A DNA stretch of 64,000 nt, taken from contig JBAQFA010000009.1 in assembly GCA_049287025.1 (NCBI GenBank), positions 24,802 through 88,801 of the forward strand, read 5' to 3'. This DNA comes from Candidatus Magasanikiibacteriota bacterium (GTDB lineage Bacteria > Patescibacteriota > Patescibacteriia > Magasanikbacterales > UBA922). Below, in pieces: positions 3,528 to 60,541 of this stretch. A program made the position numbers and the translations under genes. The notes beneath the pieces were generated by a model, which was given only the letters and a program-made list of their open reading frames with translations, searched no databases and was not told where the DNA came from. The number at the start of each line of letters is the position of its first letter. Position 1 is the stretch's first letter.

Positions 3528-3828
3528 AATTAGAATGATGCTAATATACGAATTGTACTAATGATACTAATAATAATTTGTATAGCATCGGTATAATTCG
3601 TATGAATTAGTATATTAGAATCGCATTATTTTTTAAAGTGAACCTATTTTAGCACATAATTATTTATTAAAAAATGGCTTAAAAAAGGCAAAAAGTGTAC
3701 ATAATGGGGACAAGCTGTGGATTGTGGGGATAAGTCATATTTGGGTGGTATGAATTGGAAGTATCTTTCTCTTGACAAAATTCCTCAAATCAATTATAAT
3801 CCTCTCACTAATTATAAATAATAATTTT
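3528..3828. other. Putative oriC / dnaA promoter region
   Basis: This AT-rich, non-coding stretch lies upstream of dnaA. It holds the DnaA-box-like sites tgtggattg (3716-3724) and gtggggataa (3724-3733). The classical rpmH/dnaA divergent arrangement is present. Confidence 0.5.
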
Positions 3829-55317: not shown

Positions 55318-55578
55318 AAAAGTTGTAAAGTTAAAAGTTATAAAGTTTCTAAAGTAAAAAAATTACCTCTAAACATAGAGGTAATTTTTTATTGACATTG
55401 TCGACCTGTAGATACTATACTTGAACTATATAATAATGTACTAAATAACTTGGAGTTGGTGACTAAATGGAATACTTCAGTTAAAGATTTTTGCAAACAA
55501 GAGATCAGGACTAACACACTTGCTTTTAGATAAAAAGTGGCTTAAAATAGGGTTATATAATGTTTAATCACTTAAAAT

Positions 55579-55761
55579 ATGAACTCACAAGACACTTATA
55601 GCCAAAAAGACAACCACACAGATGTTGCCGAAACACTACCAAATACTAACAACACACCAAGTGATAACCAACCAACAAACAGCCCAAACCAGCAAGTGGT
55701 GGCAAATGACGGAACTACTGTAACTTTAGGCCAAAATGGCCATTCTCATAAGACCAAATAA
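55579..55761 (+). CDS. Small low-complexity (N/T/Q/P-rich) ORF, doubtful
   Basis: 60 aa. I recognise no family and see no RBS. Confidence 0.25.
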   Translation: MNSQDTYSQKDNHTDVAETLPNTNNTPSDNQPTNSPNQQVVANDGTTVTLGQNGHSHKTK

Positions 55762-56341: not shown

Positions 56342-57085
56342 ATGAGTAATAAATATAACAAAAATTTCATTGGAAAGGTTGCTTTTCGTTTAGATTTCTC
56401 CGAAAATGTTGCAATTGGTTCATTGAAAGATCTTCATGAAGAAATAAATGATGTTTTTTCAATAAAAGAAGAAAAAGAGAGTGTGACAGGGTTTGTTCAA
56501 TTAGATTTTAAGAGCGGTGAAATGAGAAATGAAACTGAAAAAATGGCTTCTTGGTTATTTAGCAATACAGAAAAAAATAAAAGAATGGAAATAAATTCGA
56601 GATTTTTGTATTTAGAATATGATAAATACAATGAAAAAACTGAACTATTTGACGATATAAAAAATGTAGTTCAAAAATTCATATCAAAATATAATATAAA
56701 AACTTTTAATCGTATTGGTTTAAGATTTATAAACGAAATAAAGTTACAAGAAAGTGAGCAACTGGATTGGACTAAATATATTGACAAAAACCTAATTGCT
56801 AATCTTATTTTTGTTAAAGATCAAAATAAAAAATTAGCTCGTGCAATGAGTGCCTTAGTTTTCAAAGAAGAAAAAGGTGATATAAATTTTAATTTTGGTA
56901 TTTGGAATAGTGAGTATCCAAACGAGGTTAACAGAAAGGAATTTGTATTAGACTATGATTGTTTTTCAAATTTAGGAATTTCTGATGATGAAGTTTTAGA
57001 ACGCACAGAGCAGTTTCATTCATATATTGAAAAACTATTTGAAGCAAGTATAACGGAAGAATTTAGAGGATTGTTAAATAAATAA
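56342..57085 (+). CDS. Hypothetical protein (possibly TIGR04255-like)
   Basis: 247 aa. The N-terminal ...KVAFRLDF and overall size recall the TIGR04255 family. This is not verifiable here. Confidence 0.45.
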   Translation: MSNKYNKNFIGKVAFRLDFSENVAIGSLKDLHEEINDVFSIKEEKESVTGFVQLDFKSGEMRNETEKMASWLFSNTEKNKRMEINSRFLYLEYDKYNEKTELFDDIKNVVQKFISKYNIKTFNRIGLRFINEIKLQESEQLDWTKYIDKNLIANLIFVKDQNKKLARAMSALVFKEEKGDINFNFGIWNSEYPNEVNRKEFVLDYDCFSNLGISDDEVLERTEQFHSYIEKLFEASITEEFRGLLNK

Positions 57086-57088
57086 AAT

Positions 57089-57289
57089 ATGAATAATAAT
57101 TACTCGCAACAGTCTGCCCAGACAGCAGGTTCAAATGACTCTGGTTATTTTGCAAAACAAAATAATTCTACAGTAACGAGTGATTATATAACTAAAACCA
57201 AGGAAACAGCTGAATTTGTAGTTGTTAATGGTTCAGGTTATTCACAAAGACAGGCAAGAATTGTGAAAAGTAAATATGTTAGAAAGTAA
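57089..57289 (+). CDS. Small hypothetical protein
   Basis: 66 aa, tightly packed between neighbours and overlapping the next ORF by 14 nt. Confidence 0.35.
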   Translation: MNNNYSQQSAQTAGSNDSGYFAKQNNSTVTSDYITKTKETAEFVVVNGSGYSQRQARIVKSKYVRK

Positions 57290-57854
57290 TATTAAATCTT
57301 TTTATAAAAAACACAGCAAGGAGCGATTTTGCCAAGGTGATATTTTGAGAGATGTAAAAGTTTCAATTGACATTCCAATCGAATGGCAACAATCAGAGGG
57401 TAATACCACAGATTATGATTTACCGTATTGTGTTATTATGACACAAGATTGTGACTTGGATAGAGATTTCGAAAGTAAAAAAGGTGAAAAACTCACAAAC
57501 AACGACAAACATTTACCGACAATTTTAGTTTGTCCAGCATATCGTGATCTTCCTTTTTATGAGGGTAAACATCTTGTAGGCTGGAAAATGCAGGAATACA
57601 AAGGCAAGGCATTAGAAAAAATACAAAAAAACGATGAAATAAACAGGTGCCACTTTCTAAAAGGTGACAGTACCTTACAAATACCAAATCTTGTAATTGA
57701 CTTCAAACATTTCTACACATTGCCAACAAGTATACTTTATGAACAATACAACGATATTTATTTAGCAACTATAAATGAATTATTCAGAGAGAGGCTATCA
57801 CAACGTTTCGCTAATTATTTATCGAGATTTGGTTTGCCAGAATTAAAATCATAG
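57276..57854 (+). CDS. Hypothetical protein with a CVIMTQDCDLDRD motif
   Basis: 192 aa. I recognise no family with confidence. Confidence 0.45.
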   Translation: MLESNIKSFYKKHSKERFCQGDILRDVKVSIDIPIEWQQSEGNTTDYDLPYCVIMTQDCDLDRDFESKKGEKLTNNDKHLPTILVCPAYRDLPFYEGKHLVGWKMQEYKGKALEKIQKNDEINRCHFLKGDSTLQIPNLVIDFKHFYTLPTSILYEQYNDIYLATINELFRERLSQRFANYLSRFGLPELKS

Positions 57855-57910
57855 ATAAAGATTTTATAAAATACGATAATATATAACCAGCTGATAAAGC
57901 TGGTTTATTA

Positions 57911-57939
57911 TTGCTAAATAAACATCAGTATGGTAAAAT
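57911..57939 (+). promoter_or_regulatory. Promoter with extended -10 driving the structured RNA
   Basis: TTGCTA (57911-57916), a 17-nt spacer, then TGgTAAAAT (-10 at 57934-57939). Confidence 0.5.
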
Positions 57940-57945
57940 CATAAT

Positions 57946-58097
57946 GCTAACCCACAACTTAATATACACAAGAATGAATGAGGTTCTCCTCATCTTTTGT
58001 CCGTTTGCGACCAGAGATGGGGTAGCAACCTTCCACAAACGGGCATTCTTGTGTTCGCAAAGTGGGTTAGCAGGTATGCTATCCCTTTTTTGTTTTT
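57946..58097 (+). ncRNA. Riboswitch-like structured RNA / sRNA (unknown class) with overlapping terminator
   Basis: P1 pairs gctaacccac (57946-57955) with gtgggttagc (58062-71). P2 pairs cacaagaatg (57967-76) with cattcttgtg (58044-53). P3 is the hairpin atgagg-ttct-cctcat (57978-93). P4 pairs ccgtttg (58001-07) with caaacgg (58036-42). The terminator gggttagc-aggtat-gctatccc plus a T-run (58064-58096) shares the 3' strand of P1. Confidence 0.55.
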
Positions 58098-58228
58098 AAT
58101 TTAATAAAAGATTACACAGTCTTTTACAATTTTACACAAAAATTGGACAAAATTGGACAAAAATCATTCAAGTTCATACACAAATTACGGGTTTCACATT
58201 AACCCGACTAATTATTAACATAGATTAT

Positions 58229-58744
58229 ATGAAAAAATGTCAGTTTTGTGCTGAAGAAGTGCAAGATGAAGCCATAGTATGTAAACACTGTGGCAAAGAA
58301 TTAAATAAGCAGGCTGTAAAAAAGAAGGAGTATAATTGGACATTTCGCAAAATTAGTTGTGCGGTTATATTAGTCCCAGTAGTCTTGATTTTTGTAATTA
58401 CCATGGCGGGCGGATGCAATAATTCTAAATCAACCCCAACAGATAGTGCATTATCAAACGTGGGCGTTGGACAGGAAGGTTTCTTACGTACGAGTGATAC
58501 TGGTGCGGATGTTTTGTTAGCTACTTCAGAAAAATCATTTGATGATTTAATTAATGCATCGGTTGCAAAAGATACAATTGGTATGGCACAAATTGTCCTT
58601 AATGGTAATGCTTTTTACATCCCTTATAACACAAAAGTATTAGTGATCGAGTCTTCTTTTGCTAAAAGAAAAGTACGTATTTTGGAAGGTGAGAAAGTAG
58701 GCGAAACTGGTTGGATACCCTATGAGTTTGTTGTTGCAAAATAA
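58229..58744 (+). CDS. Zinc-ribbon membrane protein
   Basis: It has an N-terminal CQFCAEEV...CKHCG ribbon, one TM segment and an extracytoplasmic beta-rich (SH3-like?) C-terminus. Confidence 0.55.
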   Translation: MKKCQFCAEEVQDEAIVCKHCGKELNKQAVKKKEYNWTFRKISCAVILVPVVLIFVITMAGGCNNSKSTPTDSALSNVGVGQEGFLRTSDTGADVLLATSEKSFDDLINASVAKDTIGMAQIVLNGNAFYIPYNTKVLVIESSFAKRKVRILEGEKVGETGWIPYEFVVAK

Positions 58745-58804: not shown

Positions 58805-60442
58805 ATGACAACCACACAAGATTTGTACAAAATGATCGGAACTGCACAACAGCAGGAAGAAGATAAGGATGACGTTTCAAAATATCGATACGTTATTTAT
58901 GCTCGAAAATCTACAGATGATAAAGAAAAACAAATCAGATCATTAGGTGATCAAATTAAAGAATGTAAGGATTATGCTGAAAGAAATGGACTTAGATGTT
59001 TACCGAAACCAATAACGGAGTCAGAGTCTGCCAAGGAACCAGACATAAGGCCAGAGTTTAAGAAATTAATTGATGACATTAAAAAAGCTAAATATGATGG
59101 TATTTTGGCTTGGCATCCAGACCGTTTGGCCAGAAATATGAAGGATGCTGGAGAGATAATAGATCTGTTGGATAAAAAGATAGTGAAAGACCTAAAATTC
59201 GTAACATTTACGTTTGAGAACAATACAATGGGTAAAATGTTGTTAGGGATGGCTTTCGTGCTGTCTAAGCAGTATTCTGACGCTTTAAGTGATAATGTAA
59301 AACGAGGAACAAGTAGAAGTATTGAAGAAGGTAGATGGTTGAACAAAGCTAAACATGGTTATTATAAAGATCGTAATCAAATACTGCATCCAGATGGTAG
59401 ATTTTTTAATCTGATTGAGAATATTTTTAGGATGAGAATAGATAATAAAAGTTTGGATGATATAGCTGATTATTTGAATGAAAATAGATATTGTTGTGCC
59501 CCACCTTCTAAGAATGAAGCTGACCGTAGCCCATTTCAAATGACCAAACAGATCGTCTCTAAAATTGTGAGAGACCCATTTTACACTGGCATTCTTAAGT
59601 ATGGAGAAAACAAGGTTGATTTAACTGAAATTTATGACTTTACTCCTGCTGTAAGTGTGGATGATTTTCTGAAAATAAACAACTTTTCTGATATTGAAAA
59701 AGCTCTAAAATTAACTGGAAAAATTTATAAAGACAACGCAATCAAGGCAGATTTGATGAGAGGAATGATAATTTGTGGTGAATGTGATGGAAGTATGACA
59801 TCTGGAATTACTCCTAAAAAAACAAAAAATGGTAAAACTAATTATTTTTATTACAGATGTGATAACCCTGTTTGTAAAAATAAAGGTAAGTCTATAAGGG
59901 CAAAAGTAATTATTGACTTTGCCTGTCAATATTTGGAAAAAAACAAATTTACCTCTCATTCTATATATGGGCATTATATCCAAGAAATGAAAAAAGTTGT
60001 AATGGAAAAAGAGAGGTCTCTCATACAAAAAATTCGTTCATTGACGGAGACCAGAGTACACAAAAAAAATCAATTTGAAAAGACAAAAAAATCTCTTATA
60101 CAAGAGACTGACGAAGACATCAAGGGTTTTTTTAAGGAAGATTTGAAACAATTAGAAAAGGACATCAATAATTTAGAAACCGAAATAGATGAATTGAAAG
60201 ATGAGAAAGAAAGAAATAATAGCGTCACGCTGACTTACTCAGAATACCTTGAACTGTTCAATAATTTAGCTGAGCGTATTAAAAAAATAGGCGTTATGGA
60301 AGACCTAAATTTTATAATGAAAAAAATCTTCTTGAACTTTACTATAAAAGAGGGAAAAGTGGCTCTATATACACTAAACTCCCCATTCGGGGAGTTCGTG
60401 AAAGACCGTATTGTCTTGACATGTCGGGGTGAAAGGACTTGA
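58805..60442 (+). CDS. Large serine recombinase (resolvase/invertase N-domain + recombinase domain + zinc ribbon + coiled coil)
   Basis: The catalytic-Ser region is YVIYARKSTDDKEKQIRSLGDQ. WHPDRLARN is present. The Cys4 cluster is CGECDG...YYRCDNPVC. The C-terminal coiled coil is long. Confidence 0.85.
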   Translation: MTTTQDLYKMIGTAQQQEEDKDDVSKYRYVIYARKSTDDKEKQIRSLGDQIKECKDYAERNGLRCLPKPITESESAKEPDIRPEFKKLIDDIKKAKYDGILAWHPDRLARNMKDAGEIIDLLDKKIVKDLKFVTFTFENNTMGKMLLGMAFVLSKQYSDALSDNVKRGTSRSIEEGRWLNKAKHGYYKDRNQILHPDGRFFNLIENIFRMRIDNKSLDDIADYLNENRYCCAPPSKNEADRSPFQMTKQIVSKIVRDPFYTGILKYGENKVDLTEIYDFTPAVSVDDFLKINNFSDIEKALKLTGKIYKDNAIKADLMRGMIICGECDGSMTSGITPKKTKNGKTNYFYYRCDNPVCKNKGKSIRAKVIIDFACQYLEKNKFTSHSIYGHYIQEMKKVVMEKERSLIQKIRSLTETRVHKKNQFEKTKKSLIQETDEDIKGFFKEDLKQLEKDINNLETEIDELKDEKERNNSVTLTYSEYLELFNNLAERIKKIGVMEDLNFIMKKIFLNFTIKEGKVALYTLNSPFGEFVKDRIVLTCRGERT

Positions 60443-60497
60443 ACCTTCGGCCTCCTGGTCCCAAACCAGGCGCTCTAGCCAACTGAGCTACACCCCG
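60424..60497 (-). tRNA. tRNA-Pro (TGG)
   Basis: The reverse complement reads cggggtg-ta-gctcagttggctagagc-g-cctgg-ttTGGga-ccagg-...gaaggttcaagtccttt-caccccg-a. Confidence 0.9.
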
Positions 60498-60541
60498 TTA
60501 AAGTTATAAAGTTGAAAGTTTTAAAGTTCAAAAAAATAACT

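Follow-up and report, generated by a model that had tools for sequence, protein, structure and literature searches.

A conserved structured RNA, probably a cis-acting attenuator, in an integrative element of a Candidatus Magasanikiibacteriota bacterium

The question addressed here is what is encoded at positions 57911-58228 of a 64,000-nucleotide stretch of DNA (contig JBAQFA010000009.1; the window, for short) from a Candidatus Magasanikiibacteriota bacterium, where a promoter-like sequence is followed by a strongly folding region and then by a gene for a small membrane protein. The region lies within what looks like a small integrative element (~55.4-60.44 kb of the window) of this member of the candidate phyla radiation (CPR, or Patescibacteria). 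Bacteria of this group are mostly uncultured; to our knowledge, descriptions of their regulatory RNAs are few, and those of the mechanisms that regulate their mobile elements almost non-existent. The original prediction, made from the letters of the window, saw here a riboswitch-like RNA whose closing helix competes with a terminator. Conservation and covariation among homologues indicate that the region does encode an RNA, which with its relatives constitutes a new family of five members, and that this RNA is probably a cis-acting attenuator. More specifically, it is read here, with about even confidence, as an independently transcribed leader that attenuates transcription by means of a long-range terminator stem, in which the loop of one hairpin pairs with the 3′ tail of the RNA.

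The RNA set consists of five distinct sequences, namely the window and four homologues in metagenome contigs, with a mean column identity of 77%. The homologue in L029 was found through relatives of the 192-aa protein encoded just upstream of the region in the window, as it lies directly after a gene 73% identical to this one, and those in L031 and L032 were found next. A scan of metagenomes by exact pattern matching, with a pattern built from the blocks that are invariant in the first four sequences, gave 12 matches, of which three were true (L036, L034, and L040) and nine were due to chance, eight of them in one gut-metagenome sequence and one in L042. R1, a covariance model of the five members, detected no further member in 688 kb of loci, and BLASTN of positions 57900-58230 against phage and plasmid collections returned only chance matches of 30-40 nt. 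In viral contigs, scans with the zinc-ribbon protein encoded downstream, the recombinase of the element, and a recombinase alignment revealed no related element carrying the RNA, and four DNA-pattern scans gave either nothing or 47 chance matches that were rejected by R1. A search of genome contigs with the zinc-ribbon protein produced matches largely confined to its N-terminal zinc ribbon. Furthermore, no family of Rfam 15 matches the region at the gathering threshold or, in 10 kb and in a 341-nt slice, at E<=10; positions 57940-58100 gave only weak signals (E >= 1.5), such as RsaE, with 16.4 bits against a gathering threshold of 79, and a miRNA model. The statement that the junctions fit no known riboswitch class thus holds, as the Rfam search returned no match to any riboswitch, leader or small RNA (sRNA), and neither ARAGORN nor the Rfam tRNA and tmRNA models made a call at 57900-58100.

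The RNA has a nested scaffold, in which P1 encloses P2, and P2 encloses the hairpins P3 and P4 (Table 1). P1, which had been described as a perfect 10-bp helix (57946-55 with 58062-71), has 10/10 Watson-Crick pairs in the window and 10/10 paired positions in every one of the five sequences, with a compensatory change of one pair from A-U to U-A in L031 and L034. P2, likewise predicted as 10 perfect bp (57967-76 with 58044-53), is also paired at 10/10 positions; in all five sequences, the helix is retained with a different sequence, 3/7 aligned pairs show compensatory changes, and its length reaches 13 bp or more in L029. P3 is found where it had been placed (57978-93), with a compensation from A-U to G-C between the window and L036. 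P4 exists too, although it is longer than the predicted pairing of 58001-07 with 58036-42, and one of its C-G pairs has become U-A in L031 and L034. RNAalifold recovered all four helices from the five sequences, with 37 pairs of which 8 are compensated. The fold of the window sequence (−58.3 kcal/mol, z −5.5) was more stable than any of 200 shuffles, and the z-scores obtained for the fold were −5.5 and −7.9. Shuffling and homologues, therefore, both bear out the nested four-helix fold.

The boundaries of the putative transcript are conserved as well. The extended −10 promoter that had been proposed at 57911-57939 is present in the window as TTGCTA-17-TGgTAAAAT, and all five sequences keep a −35 element of the form TTGnnA, a 17-nt spacer, a TGn motif, and a −10 hexamer exactly 4 nt before the AYGC with which P1 starts. 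From this layout, transcription is predicted to begin at about 57944-57946. At the other end, the expected U-tract (58086-58096) is present, with an invariant core in all five sequences. By this evidence, the structured leader is a real, conserved, and previously uncatalogued RNA of ~150 nt with its own promoter.

There are, however, two observations that would suit a quite different view, in which there is no RNA at all and the region is a DNA-level element (a recombination site, an origin or a cruciform), a 62-aa protein gene or a set of chance palindromes. In the first place, the minus strand folds about as well as the plus strand (z −6.0 and −5.5). Since both strands fold well, the strand has to be settled from other evidence: some seven of the base-pair cells hold a G.U on the plus strand that would turn into C.A on the opposite one, with G.U pairs occurring on the plus strand only, and the promoter and U-tract are also strand-specific. 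R1 scores its members with 160-172 bits on the plus strand (by construction) versus 16-26 bits on the minus strand. By these signals, the plus strand is the functional strand of the predicted RNA. In the second place, an open reading frame (ORF) of 62 codons (57911-58099) spans the region in the window. This frame is interrupted after 5-10 codons in L029, L036, and L034, while L031 lacks its ATG and also has a stop in that frame. In addition, the lengths of the homologues differ by +15, +7, −1, and +5 nt, with indels that are not multiples of three. HMMER against 1.84 billion representatives yielded only a spurious match (residues 22-40) to a repetitive 1727-aa protein, and no Pfam, NCBIfam, PHROG or PADLOC family matched the ORF. 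It was, consequently, rejected as a protein gene, in agreement with its earlier dismissal as an artefact. Since the frame is broken, a true protein homologue is missing from the databases searched, and the strand-specific signals lie on the plus strand, the region is best understood as a non-coding RNA transcribed from that strand. The element is present in a single copy within the window, and it is found beside both tyrosine and serine integrases and is, therefore, not a specific recombinase site. Altogether, a view that dispenses with the RNA is barely credible.

A further feature of the RNA involves its 3′ end. A tail of 14 nt (58072-85) separates P1 from the U-tract and can form 13-14 complementary bp with positions 58019-31, within the loop of P4 (L4); the resulting helix would directly adjoin the invariant CCCUUUUUUGUU. 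In the five sequences, the energy of this L4:tail duplex ranges from −18.6 to −22.0 kcal/mol, whereas shuffled tails averaged −8 to −12 kcal/mol, with no more than 1-8 of 2000 being as good as the real duplex. The substitutions in the helix comprise a compensation from U-A to C-G and one-sided changes from G-U to G-C and from C-G to U-G. There is also a compensatory insertion in L029, where L4 has gained a C and the tail a G that pairs with it; a second inserted L4 base forms U:A with the tail in L034 and G:C in L031, and leaves a U.U mismatch in L029. On the whole, 96.9% of the cells of this helix are paired. When P1, P2, P4, and L4:tail are taken together (alignment A4), 99% of 195 cells pair and six pairs are compensated; the covariation score was attained by 0/500 shuffles, and slid controls showed 35-45% pairing. 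Thus, a helix based on G+C pairs abuts the U-tract UUUUUUGUU on its 5′ side, as would be expected of an attenuator, and ORFs begin 12-132 nt downstream.

A different terminator had been proposed originally, in which the 3′ strand of P1 served as the 5′ half of a hairpin with the tail and U-tract (58064-58096), so that P1 and the terminator would exclude each other. In the window, this local hairpin (58064-58085) is an imperfect stem of nine positions with a U.U mismatch and about −8.5 kcal/mol, and its energies across the five sequences range from −6.3 to −8.6 kcal/mol. A terminator scan of the window made no call for it. Over the five sequences, 84% of its cells pair, no change is compensated and one position never pairs; a second one is broken in 2/5 (L031 and L034), where the change in the 3′ strand of P1 is compensated in the 5′ strand of P1 instead. 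The hairpin was, therefore, set aside as a conserved terminator. Given that L4:tail is strong and compensated while the local hairpin is uncompensated, the conserved partner of the tail is L4. What remains of the earlier proposal is the existence of mutually exclusive pairings of the attenuator type; the competition between P1 and the terminator does not, since the covariation favors L4:tail.

Two geometries can be envisaged for the terminator stem. It may be a pseudoknot built on the scaffold of P1, P2, and P4, in which case, by reasoning, the zero-nt junction between the 3′ strand of P1 and the tail would let P1 and the loop-tail helix stack. Alternatively, it may be part of a long nested 3′ hairpin. 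When the nested L4:tail fold was forced, the 3′ half became a single long hairpin, from 58012 to 58092 in the window, composed of an A/G-rich strand paired with the U-tract, L4:tail, UCCAC:GUGGG, and an apical CRGRCAY:GUGUYYG. RNAalifold of the 3′ domain alone also gave one terminator hairpin, with 32 pairs and −37.3 kcal/mol. In this nested conformer, the GUGGG at the 5′ side of the P1 3′ strand can pair with UCCAC (58032-36). Furthermore, the G to A change by which the 3′ strand of P4 covaries with its 5′ strand has a counterpart in J2/1 as well, where C has become U in the apical hairpin; one nucleotide of P4 hence appears to satisfy two partners.

L4 has yet another possible partner. In the pairing named altB here, the 3′ strand of P3 together with J3/4 (57988-57997), and part of the 5′ strand of P3, pair with L4 (58013-58032). 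The altB duplex has −18.4 to −21.9 kcal/mol in all five sequences, in every one of which it is the inner hairpin of the minimum free energy (MFE) fold. The bases inserted into L4 of L029 (U), L034 (U), and L031 (G) have a complement in the P3 region in all three cases. Consequently, a pairing that would exclude the terminator helix is conserved in 5/5 sequences and the changes observed fit both partners, with a low statistical power. In terms of energy, the altB state of the window, which is the MFE, has −56.7 kcal/mol, the nested terminator conformer −46.3 kcal/mol, and the scaffold with P3 and P4 and an open L4 −43.5 kcal/mol. As the L4:tail helix would add −18.6 kcal/mol to this scaffold, the pseudoknotted state could be at about −62 kcal/mol before any pseudoknot penalty, which would be comparable to or better than the MFE.

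These pairings suggest a scheme in which the start of transcription at P1, the termination at the U-tract, and the switching between both outcomes are proposals. Once transcription had started, P3 would fold first. L4 would then either invade P3, producing altB, or stay free while P4, P2, and P1 close. L4 would thus be a hub with two mutually exclusive partners, the tail or the P3 3′ strand with J3/4. If L4 were free when the tail emerges, the 13-14 bp L4:tail helix, based on G+C pairs, would form just before the U-tract and an RNA of ~150 nt would be released. If L4 were instead held in altB, the tail would remain unpaired, because the 3′ strand of P1 is already engaged in P1, and the polymerase would continue into the membrane-protein and integration genes. 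As altB can form before L4:tail and is locally the more stable of the folds, read-through would tend to be the default and some factor would favor termination.

The nature of such a factor bears on the riboswitch reading of the original prediction, according to which a metabolite bound at the P2/P3/P4 junction, or at the internal loop between P1 and P2, would select the fold. A multi-helix junction followed by an expression platform would suit it, and the lack of a match to known classes would make this a new class. Nevertheless, when the junctions were examined as a potential binding pocket, J1/2 (11-21 nt) and J2/3 (1-8 nt) were found to vary freely in length and sequence among the five sequences, which argues against a metabolite pocket. 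Of the unpaired sequence that is conserved, a large part (the 3′ portion of L4, the tail, J2/1, and J3/4) is engaged in alternative helices. P1 is a perfect 10-bp helix of invariant length rather than a marginal, ligand-dependent one, and the genes downstream encode heterogeneous membrane proteins of mobile elements with no metabolic theme. In sum, nothing points to a small-molecule aptamer and a metabolite riboswitch is unlikely; a protein or RNA of the element is the more plausible input for the switch.

The gene context of the five sequences indicates which genes such a leader would serve. In the window, the next gene (58229) does encode, as had been predicted, a zinc-ribbon membrane protein, with an N-terminal Zn_ribbon_3 domain that scores 22.6 bits in Pfam, under the cut-off of 27, and a hydrophobic segment that can be read from the translation. 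The RNA, however, is not a leader that belongs to this gene. Three of the four homologous loci have unrelated membrane proteins at this place, and the product of the downstream gene in L029 shows no similarity to the zinc-ribbon protein of the window. Conversely, similar zinc-ribbon genes, upstream of which homologues might have been expected, do not have the RNA in the three closest cases (59-67% identity): another gene ends 20-55 nt upstream of them and leaves no gap for it. A zinc-ribbon-specific leader was, consequently, discarded. What the five downstream genes have in common is that their products are small (129-209 aa) and contain hydrophobic segments.

Beyond the membrane-protein gene, the loci share more of their organization. 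A homologous protein of ~245 aa (240-250), with no Pfam assignment, is encoded in four RNA loci directly after the membrane-protein gene or, in L029, one gene later. It immediately precedes a tyrosine integrase in L040 and L029, is absent from the serine-recombinase element of the window, and is a candidate regulator or excision factor. An integration gene lies further downstream, this being a tyrosine integrase in L029 and L040 and a serine recombinase in the window. On the upstream side, the cargo is a cassette of genes for a TIGR04255-family protein, a 66-aa ORF, and the 192-aa protein in the window, L029, and L036; in L031, the contig breaks off and shows just the 192-aa gene, and L034 has unrelated genes for proteins of 172 and 335 aa. 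Since the cargo differs in L034, and the RNA is missing after 192-aa homologues at 69%, 60%, and 57% identity, a tie between the RNA and the upstream 192-aa gene was also rejected. The RNA, therefore, sits where variable cargo meets the element's own genes, that is, the membrane protein, often the ~245-aa protein, and the integrase. Past the 192-aa gene of L030, the one with 69% identity, only a simple terminator (TTAACCCACC-loop-GGTGGGTTTTTTT, 3725-3765) is found. P1 of the RNA (GCTAACCCAC / GTGGGTTAGC) is similar to the stem of this terminator, a likeness that may be a hint at the origin of the RNA or a coincidence.

The distance from the U-tract to the next start codon is 12 nt in L036, 30-40 nt in L029, L031, and L040, and 132 nt in the window. 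Gaps of 12-40 nt, as in the four homologues, leave no room for a promoter, and downstream genes so placed would be reached by read-through from the promoter of the RNA. This dependence is the main argument for a cis-acting attenuator over a purely stand-alone sRNA, to which the leader offers several resemblances. The alternative would be an sRNA that acts in trans or binds a protein, similar to LOOT, an RNA that Rfam classes as an sRNA and that lies upstream of zinc-ribbon genes in related loci; L4:tail and the U-tract would then make a constitutive terminator within a compact pseudoknot, leakage or other promoters would drive the downstream genes, and the alternative pairings would be incidental. 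The RNA has its own conserved promoter and U-tract, its 5′ and 3′ ends are paired, as is typical of stable sRNAs, the pseudoknot on the core with P3 and P4 could rival the MFE, and promoter-like sites lie within the 132 nt that precede the next gene of the window. Nevertheless, besides the short distances in the other loci, the changes in the alternative partners of L4 and in the P4 and J2/1 strands are consistent with both pairings, and no complementary target of the repeated motif described below was found in the rest of the window. Overall, a stand-alone sRNA is a real possibility, but a less probable one than the attenuator.

The layout of the leader is in line with attenuation, given that a promoter whose position is kept in 5/5 sequences is followed by a region where no reading frame is conserved. 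Several points do weigh against it. There are only five distinct sequences, with the limited divergence given above, and L031 and L034 share several changes, so that the covariation events that are independent must be few. A long-range or pseudoknotted terminator stem is unusual, and its steric feasibility is a matter of reasoning. According to the folding models, the antiterminated fold would form first and be thermodynamically favored, so that termination would need a factor or a slow refolding. In the window, the distance of 132 nt and the promoter-like sites make for a looser coupling to the next gene. Finally, a stand-alone sRNA with a constitutive L4:tail terminator fits the data almost as well.

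Table 1. Positions of the RNA, its helices, its homologues, and neighboring features (window coordinates unless a locus is named)
Feature	Position	Strand	Details
Promoter, sigma-70-type, extended −10	57911..57939	+	−35 TTGCTA 57911-16; TG 57931-32; −10 TAAAAT 57934-39
Whole structured RNA, ~150 nt	57944..58096	+	predicted start to end of U-tract
P1 5′ strand GCUAACCCAC	57946..57955	+	pairs with 58062-58071
P2 5′ strand	57966..57976	+	pairs with 58044-58054
P3 hairpin AUGAGG-UUCU-CCUCAU	57978..57993	+	6 bp, UUCU loop
P4 5′ strand GUCCGUUUG	57999..58007	+	pairs with 58036-58044; 9/9 pairs in 5/5 sequences
L4, 28-nt loop of P4	58008..58035	+	58019-58031 GGGGUAGCAACCU, 5′ strand of long-range helix
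P1 3′ strand GUGGGUUAGC	58062..58071	+	pairs with 57946-57955
3′ tail AGGUAUGCUAUCCC	58072..58085	+	3′ strand of 13-14 bp helix with L4
U-tract UUUUUUGUUUU	58086..58096	+	proposed release site; CCCTTTTTTGTT invariant in 5/5 sequences
HTH (helix-turn-helix) protein	55814-56224		gene of the element
TIGR04255-family protein	56342-57085		cargo of the element, followed by the 66-aa ORF
192-aa protein	57276-57854		gene directly upstream of the structured region
Intrinsic terminator hairpin of 192-aa gene	57885..57905	+	called by terminator scan
Spacer from RNA to zinc-ribbon gene	58097..58228	+	132 nt; seen in the window only
171-aa protein, zinc ribbon and one hydrophobic segment	58229..58744	+	first gene past the RNA
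Large serine recombinase	58805..60442	+	Pfam Resolvase, Recombinase, Zn_ribbon_recom
tRNA-Pro(UGG)	60423-60497	−	overlapped by 3′ end of recombinase gene
RNA homologue, L029	8855-9022		protein after RNA: unrelated, 129 aa
RNA homologue, L031	575-734		protein after RNA: unrelated, 141 aa
RNA homologue, L036	989-1140		identical to L032 (L036 is the longer contig); protein after RNA: unrelated, 209 aa
RNA homologue, L034	1694-1851		identical to L040; protein after RNA in L040: zinc-ribbon, 140 aa, Pfam 29.6 bits
~245-aa protein, L040	2183-2920	−	
~245-aa protein, L036	1859-2584		
~245-aa protein, L031	1263-2015		
~245-aa protein, L029	10443-11159		

The gene content of the element in the window was assigned with Pfam and NCBIfam profiles for proteins and with ARAGORN for tRNA and tmRNA (Table 1). 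The terminator of the 192-aa gene, which ends just before the promoter of the RNA, is predicted to insulate this promoter from transcription of the cargo; in the homologues shown, an equivalent hairpin and T-run with a different stem sequence lie 5′ of the promoter. The spacer that follows the RNA contains promoter-like hexamers, a tandem repeat of AAAATTGGAC (58140-58159), and a CGGGTT...AACCCG hairpin (58188-58206); these may provide the zinc-ribbon gene with an operator and a second promoter. At the right end, the final 20 nt of the serine recombinase ORF (60423-60442) are shared with the 3′ end of tRNA-Pro(UGG), encoded on the other strand, an overlap that fits integration into the tRNA gene. 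Just beyond the presumed ends of the island, there is a pair of AAAGTT-rich stretches of 43 nt with 72% identity, the first of which (55318-55368) comes after a Na+/H+ exchanger gene, while the second (60499-60541) separates tRNA-Pro from tRNA-Phe; the pair may have to do with the site of insertion, or it may be an intergenic repeat of local occurrence. At the left end, a 60-aa ORF (55579-55761) with a high content of Asn, Thr, Gln, and Pro matches no family and is annotated as a gene in the public assembly.

The three-gene cassette upstream of the RNA is itself conserved. It comprises genes for a TIGR04255-family protein (~247 aa), an ORF of ~60-66 aa that overlaps the next gene, and a protein of ~190 aa, and it is found in the window (56342-57854), L029 (7256-8767), L030 (2116-3655), L045 (279-1768), and L046 (598-2100). 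The ~190-aa protein contains a QDCDL motif, and its C-terminus (NELFRERLSQRFANYLSRFGLP) is highly conserved; this protein has >550 homologues, archaeal ones among them, and no match in PADLOC. The cassette looks like mobile cargo and may be a defence or toxin module.

How does this RNA compare with known systems? The closest parallels in logic are the classical terminator/antiterminator leaders, that is, the 1:2/2:3/3:4 logic of trp-type attenuators and the expression platforms of riboswitches. As in the former, the leader is promoter-proximal and has a chain of exclusive helices, from the two strands of P3, through the P3 3′ strand and J3/4 with L4, to L4:tail, the last of which abuts a U-tract just upstream of an ORF. 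By contrast, the window RNA has neither a conserved leader peptide nor a recognizable aptamer core, and the segments of its terminator are ~45 nt apart, with the intervening strands engaged in P4, P2, and P1. A long-range helix acting as a terminator stem would, if true, be an unusual build for an intrinsic terminator. In any case, the family is compact and its mechanism is specific enough to be probed by mutation, since the loop-tail helix and the loop-P3 helix can be set against each other.

A second parallel is offered by the immunity RNAs of satellite phage P4 (CI) and of phages P1/P7 (c4-type), which, like the RNA of the window, belong to untranslated leaders of mobile elements with repeated complementary motifs. 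The window RNA contains two near-identical copies of one motif, 'a' (AUGCUAACCC at 57944-53 and AUGCUAUCCC at 58076-85), and two of another, 'b' (GGGGUAGCA at 58019-27 and GGGUUAGCA at 58064-72), with every 'a' complementary to every 'b'; no further target copies were found elsewhere in the window. In P4 immunity, the CI RNA pairs with the seqA and seqC sequences that flank it in the leader, which results in premature termination (PMC4825925). Premature termination is the outcome proposed for the window RNA too, and the comparison with P4 is meant as an analogy only. One could thus imagine that the terminated or processed RNA acts in trans on nascent leaders and silences the element, and a position upstream of integration genes in a mobile element would be fitting. 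Nevertheless, the intramolecular pairing accounts for all of the complementarity, the order of the motifs (a1-b1-b2-a2) is unlike that of P4 (seqA, CI with its complement, seqC), there is no match to C4/CI-type or other families in Rfam and no homology was detected, and the host here is a CPR bacterium rather than an enterobacterium. Such an immunity or autoregulation is more doubtful still than a riboswitch.

Finally, LOOT RNA (RF03000) has been reported from the OD1, OP11, and TM7 lineages, which belong to the CPR. In L022 (5338-5457; identical in L025 and L027), a LOOT RNA with 83.9 bits is found upstream of a homologue of the zinc-ribbon gene with 49% identity; a serine recombinase lies downstream in L022 and L025, and a tRNA comes next in L022. 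Another one, in a second Magasanikiibacteriota metagenome-assembled genome (L007 5809-5927, 79.4 bits), lies ~75 nt upstream of a zinc-ribbon gene. In two independent CPR loci, then, LOOT precedes a zinc-ribbon gene by 55-75 nt and is followed by a U-run, which suggests that LOOT is associated with a gene context of the kind in which the window RNA occurs. The main text of Weinberg et al. 2017 does not deal with LOOT, and a literature search for regulatory RNAs of CPR mobile elements found nothing. Both RNAs share a CPR host, the position upstream of a zinc-ribbon gene with a U-run, and a length of ~120-150 nt. They differ in that LOOT is made of four serial hairpins, with GNRA-type loops on the last two, while the window RNA is nested (P1 > P2 > (P3, P4)) and features the loop-tail helix, and there is no match in sequence or structure between them: the LOOT model (gathering threshold 46.4 bits) found nothing in the window at gathering, nor at E<=10 in the 10 kb and 341 nt searched. 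The window RNA was, therefore, not accepted as a member of LOOT, and with no match and another architecture it is better regarded as a positional, and perhaps functional, analogue. In turn, the orphan LOOT is placed in a genomic context, ahead of zinc-ribbon genes like that of the window, suggesting a shared role, and the RNA described here marks the junction between the genes of the element and variable cargo, in this case a TIGR04255 cassette that is possibly related to defence. It is tempting, although rather speculative, to consider both as RNA master switches of CPR integrative elements, each a self-contained leader whose long-range pseudoknot terminator would determine if the genes for the membrane protein and for integration and excision are transcribed, maybe with a feedback of the released RNA on new transcripts similar to that of P4. 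If this were true, LOOT-type RNAs would receive their first assigned function, and a mechanism of RNA regulation would have been described for the first time in mobile elements of CPR bacteria.

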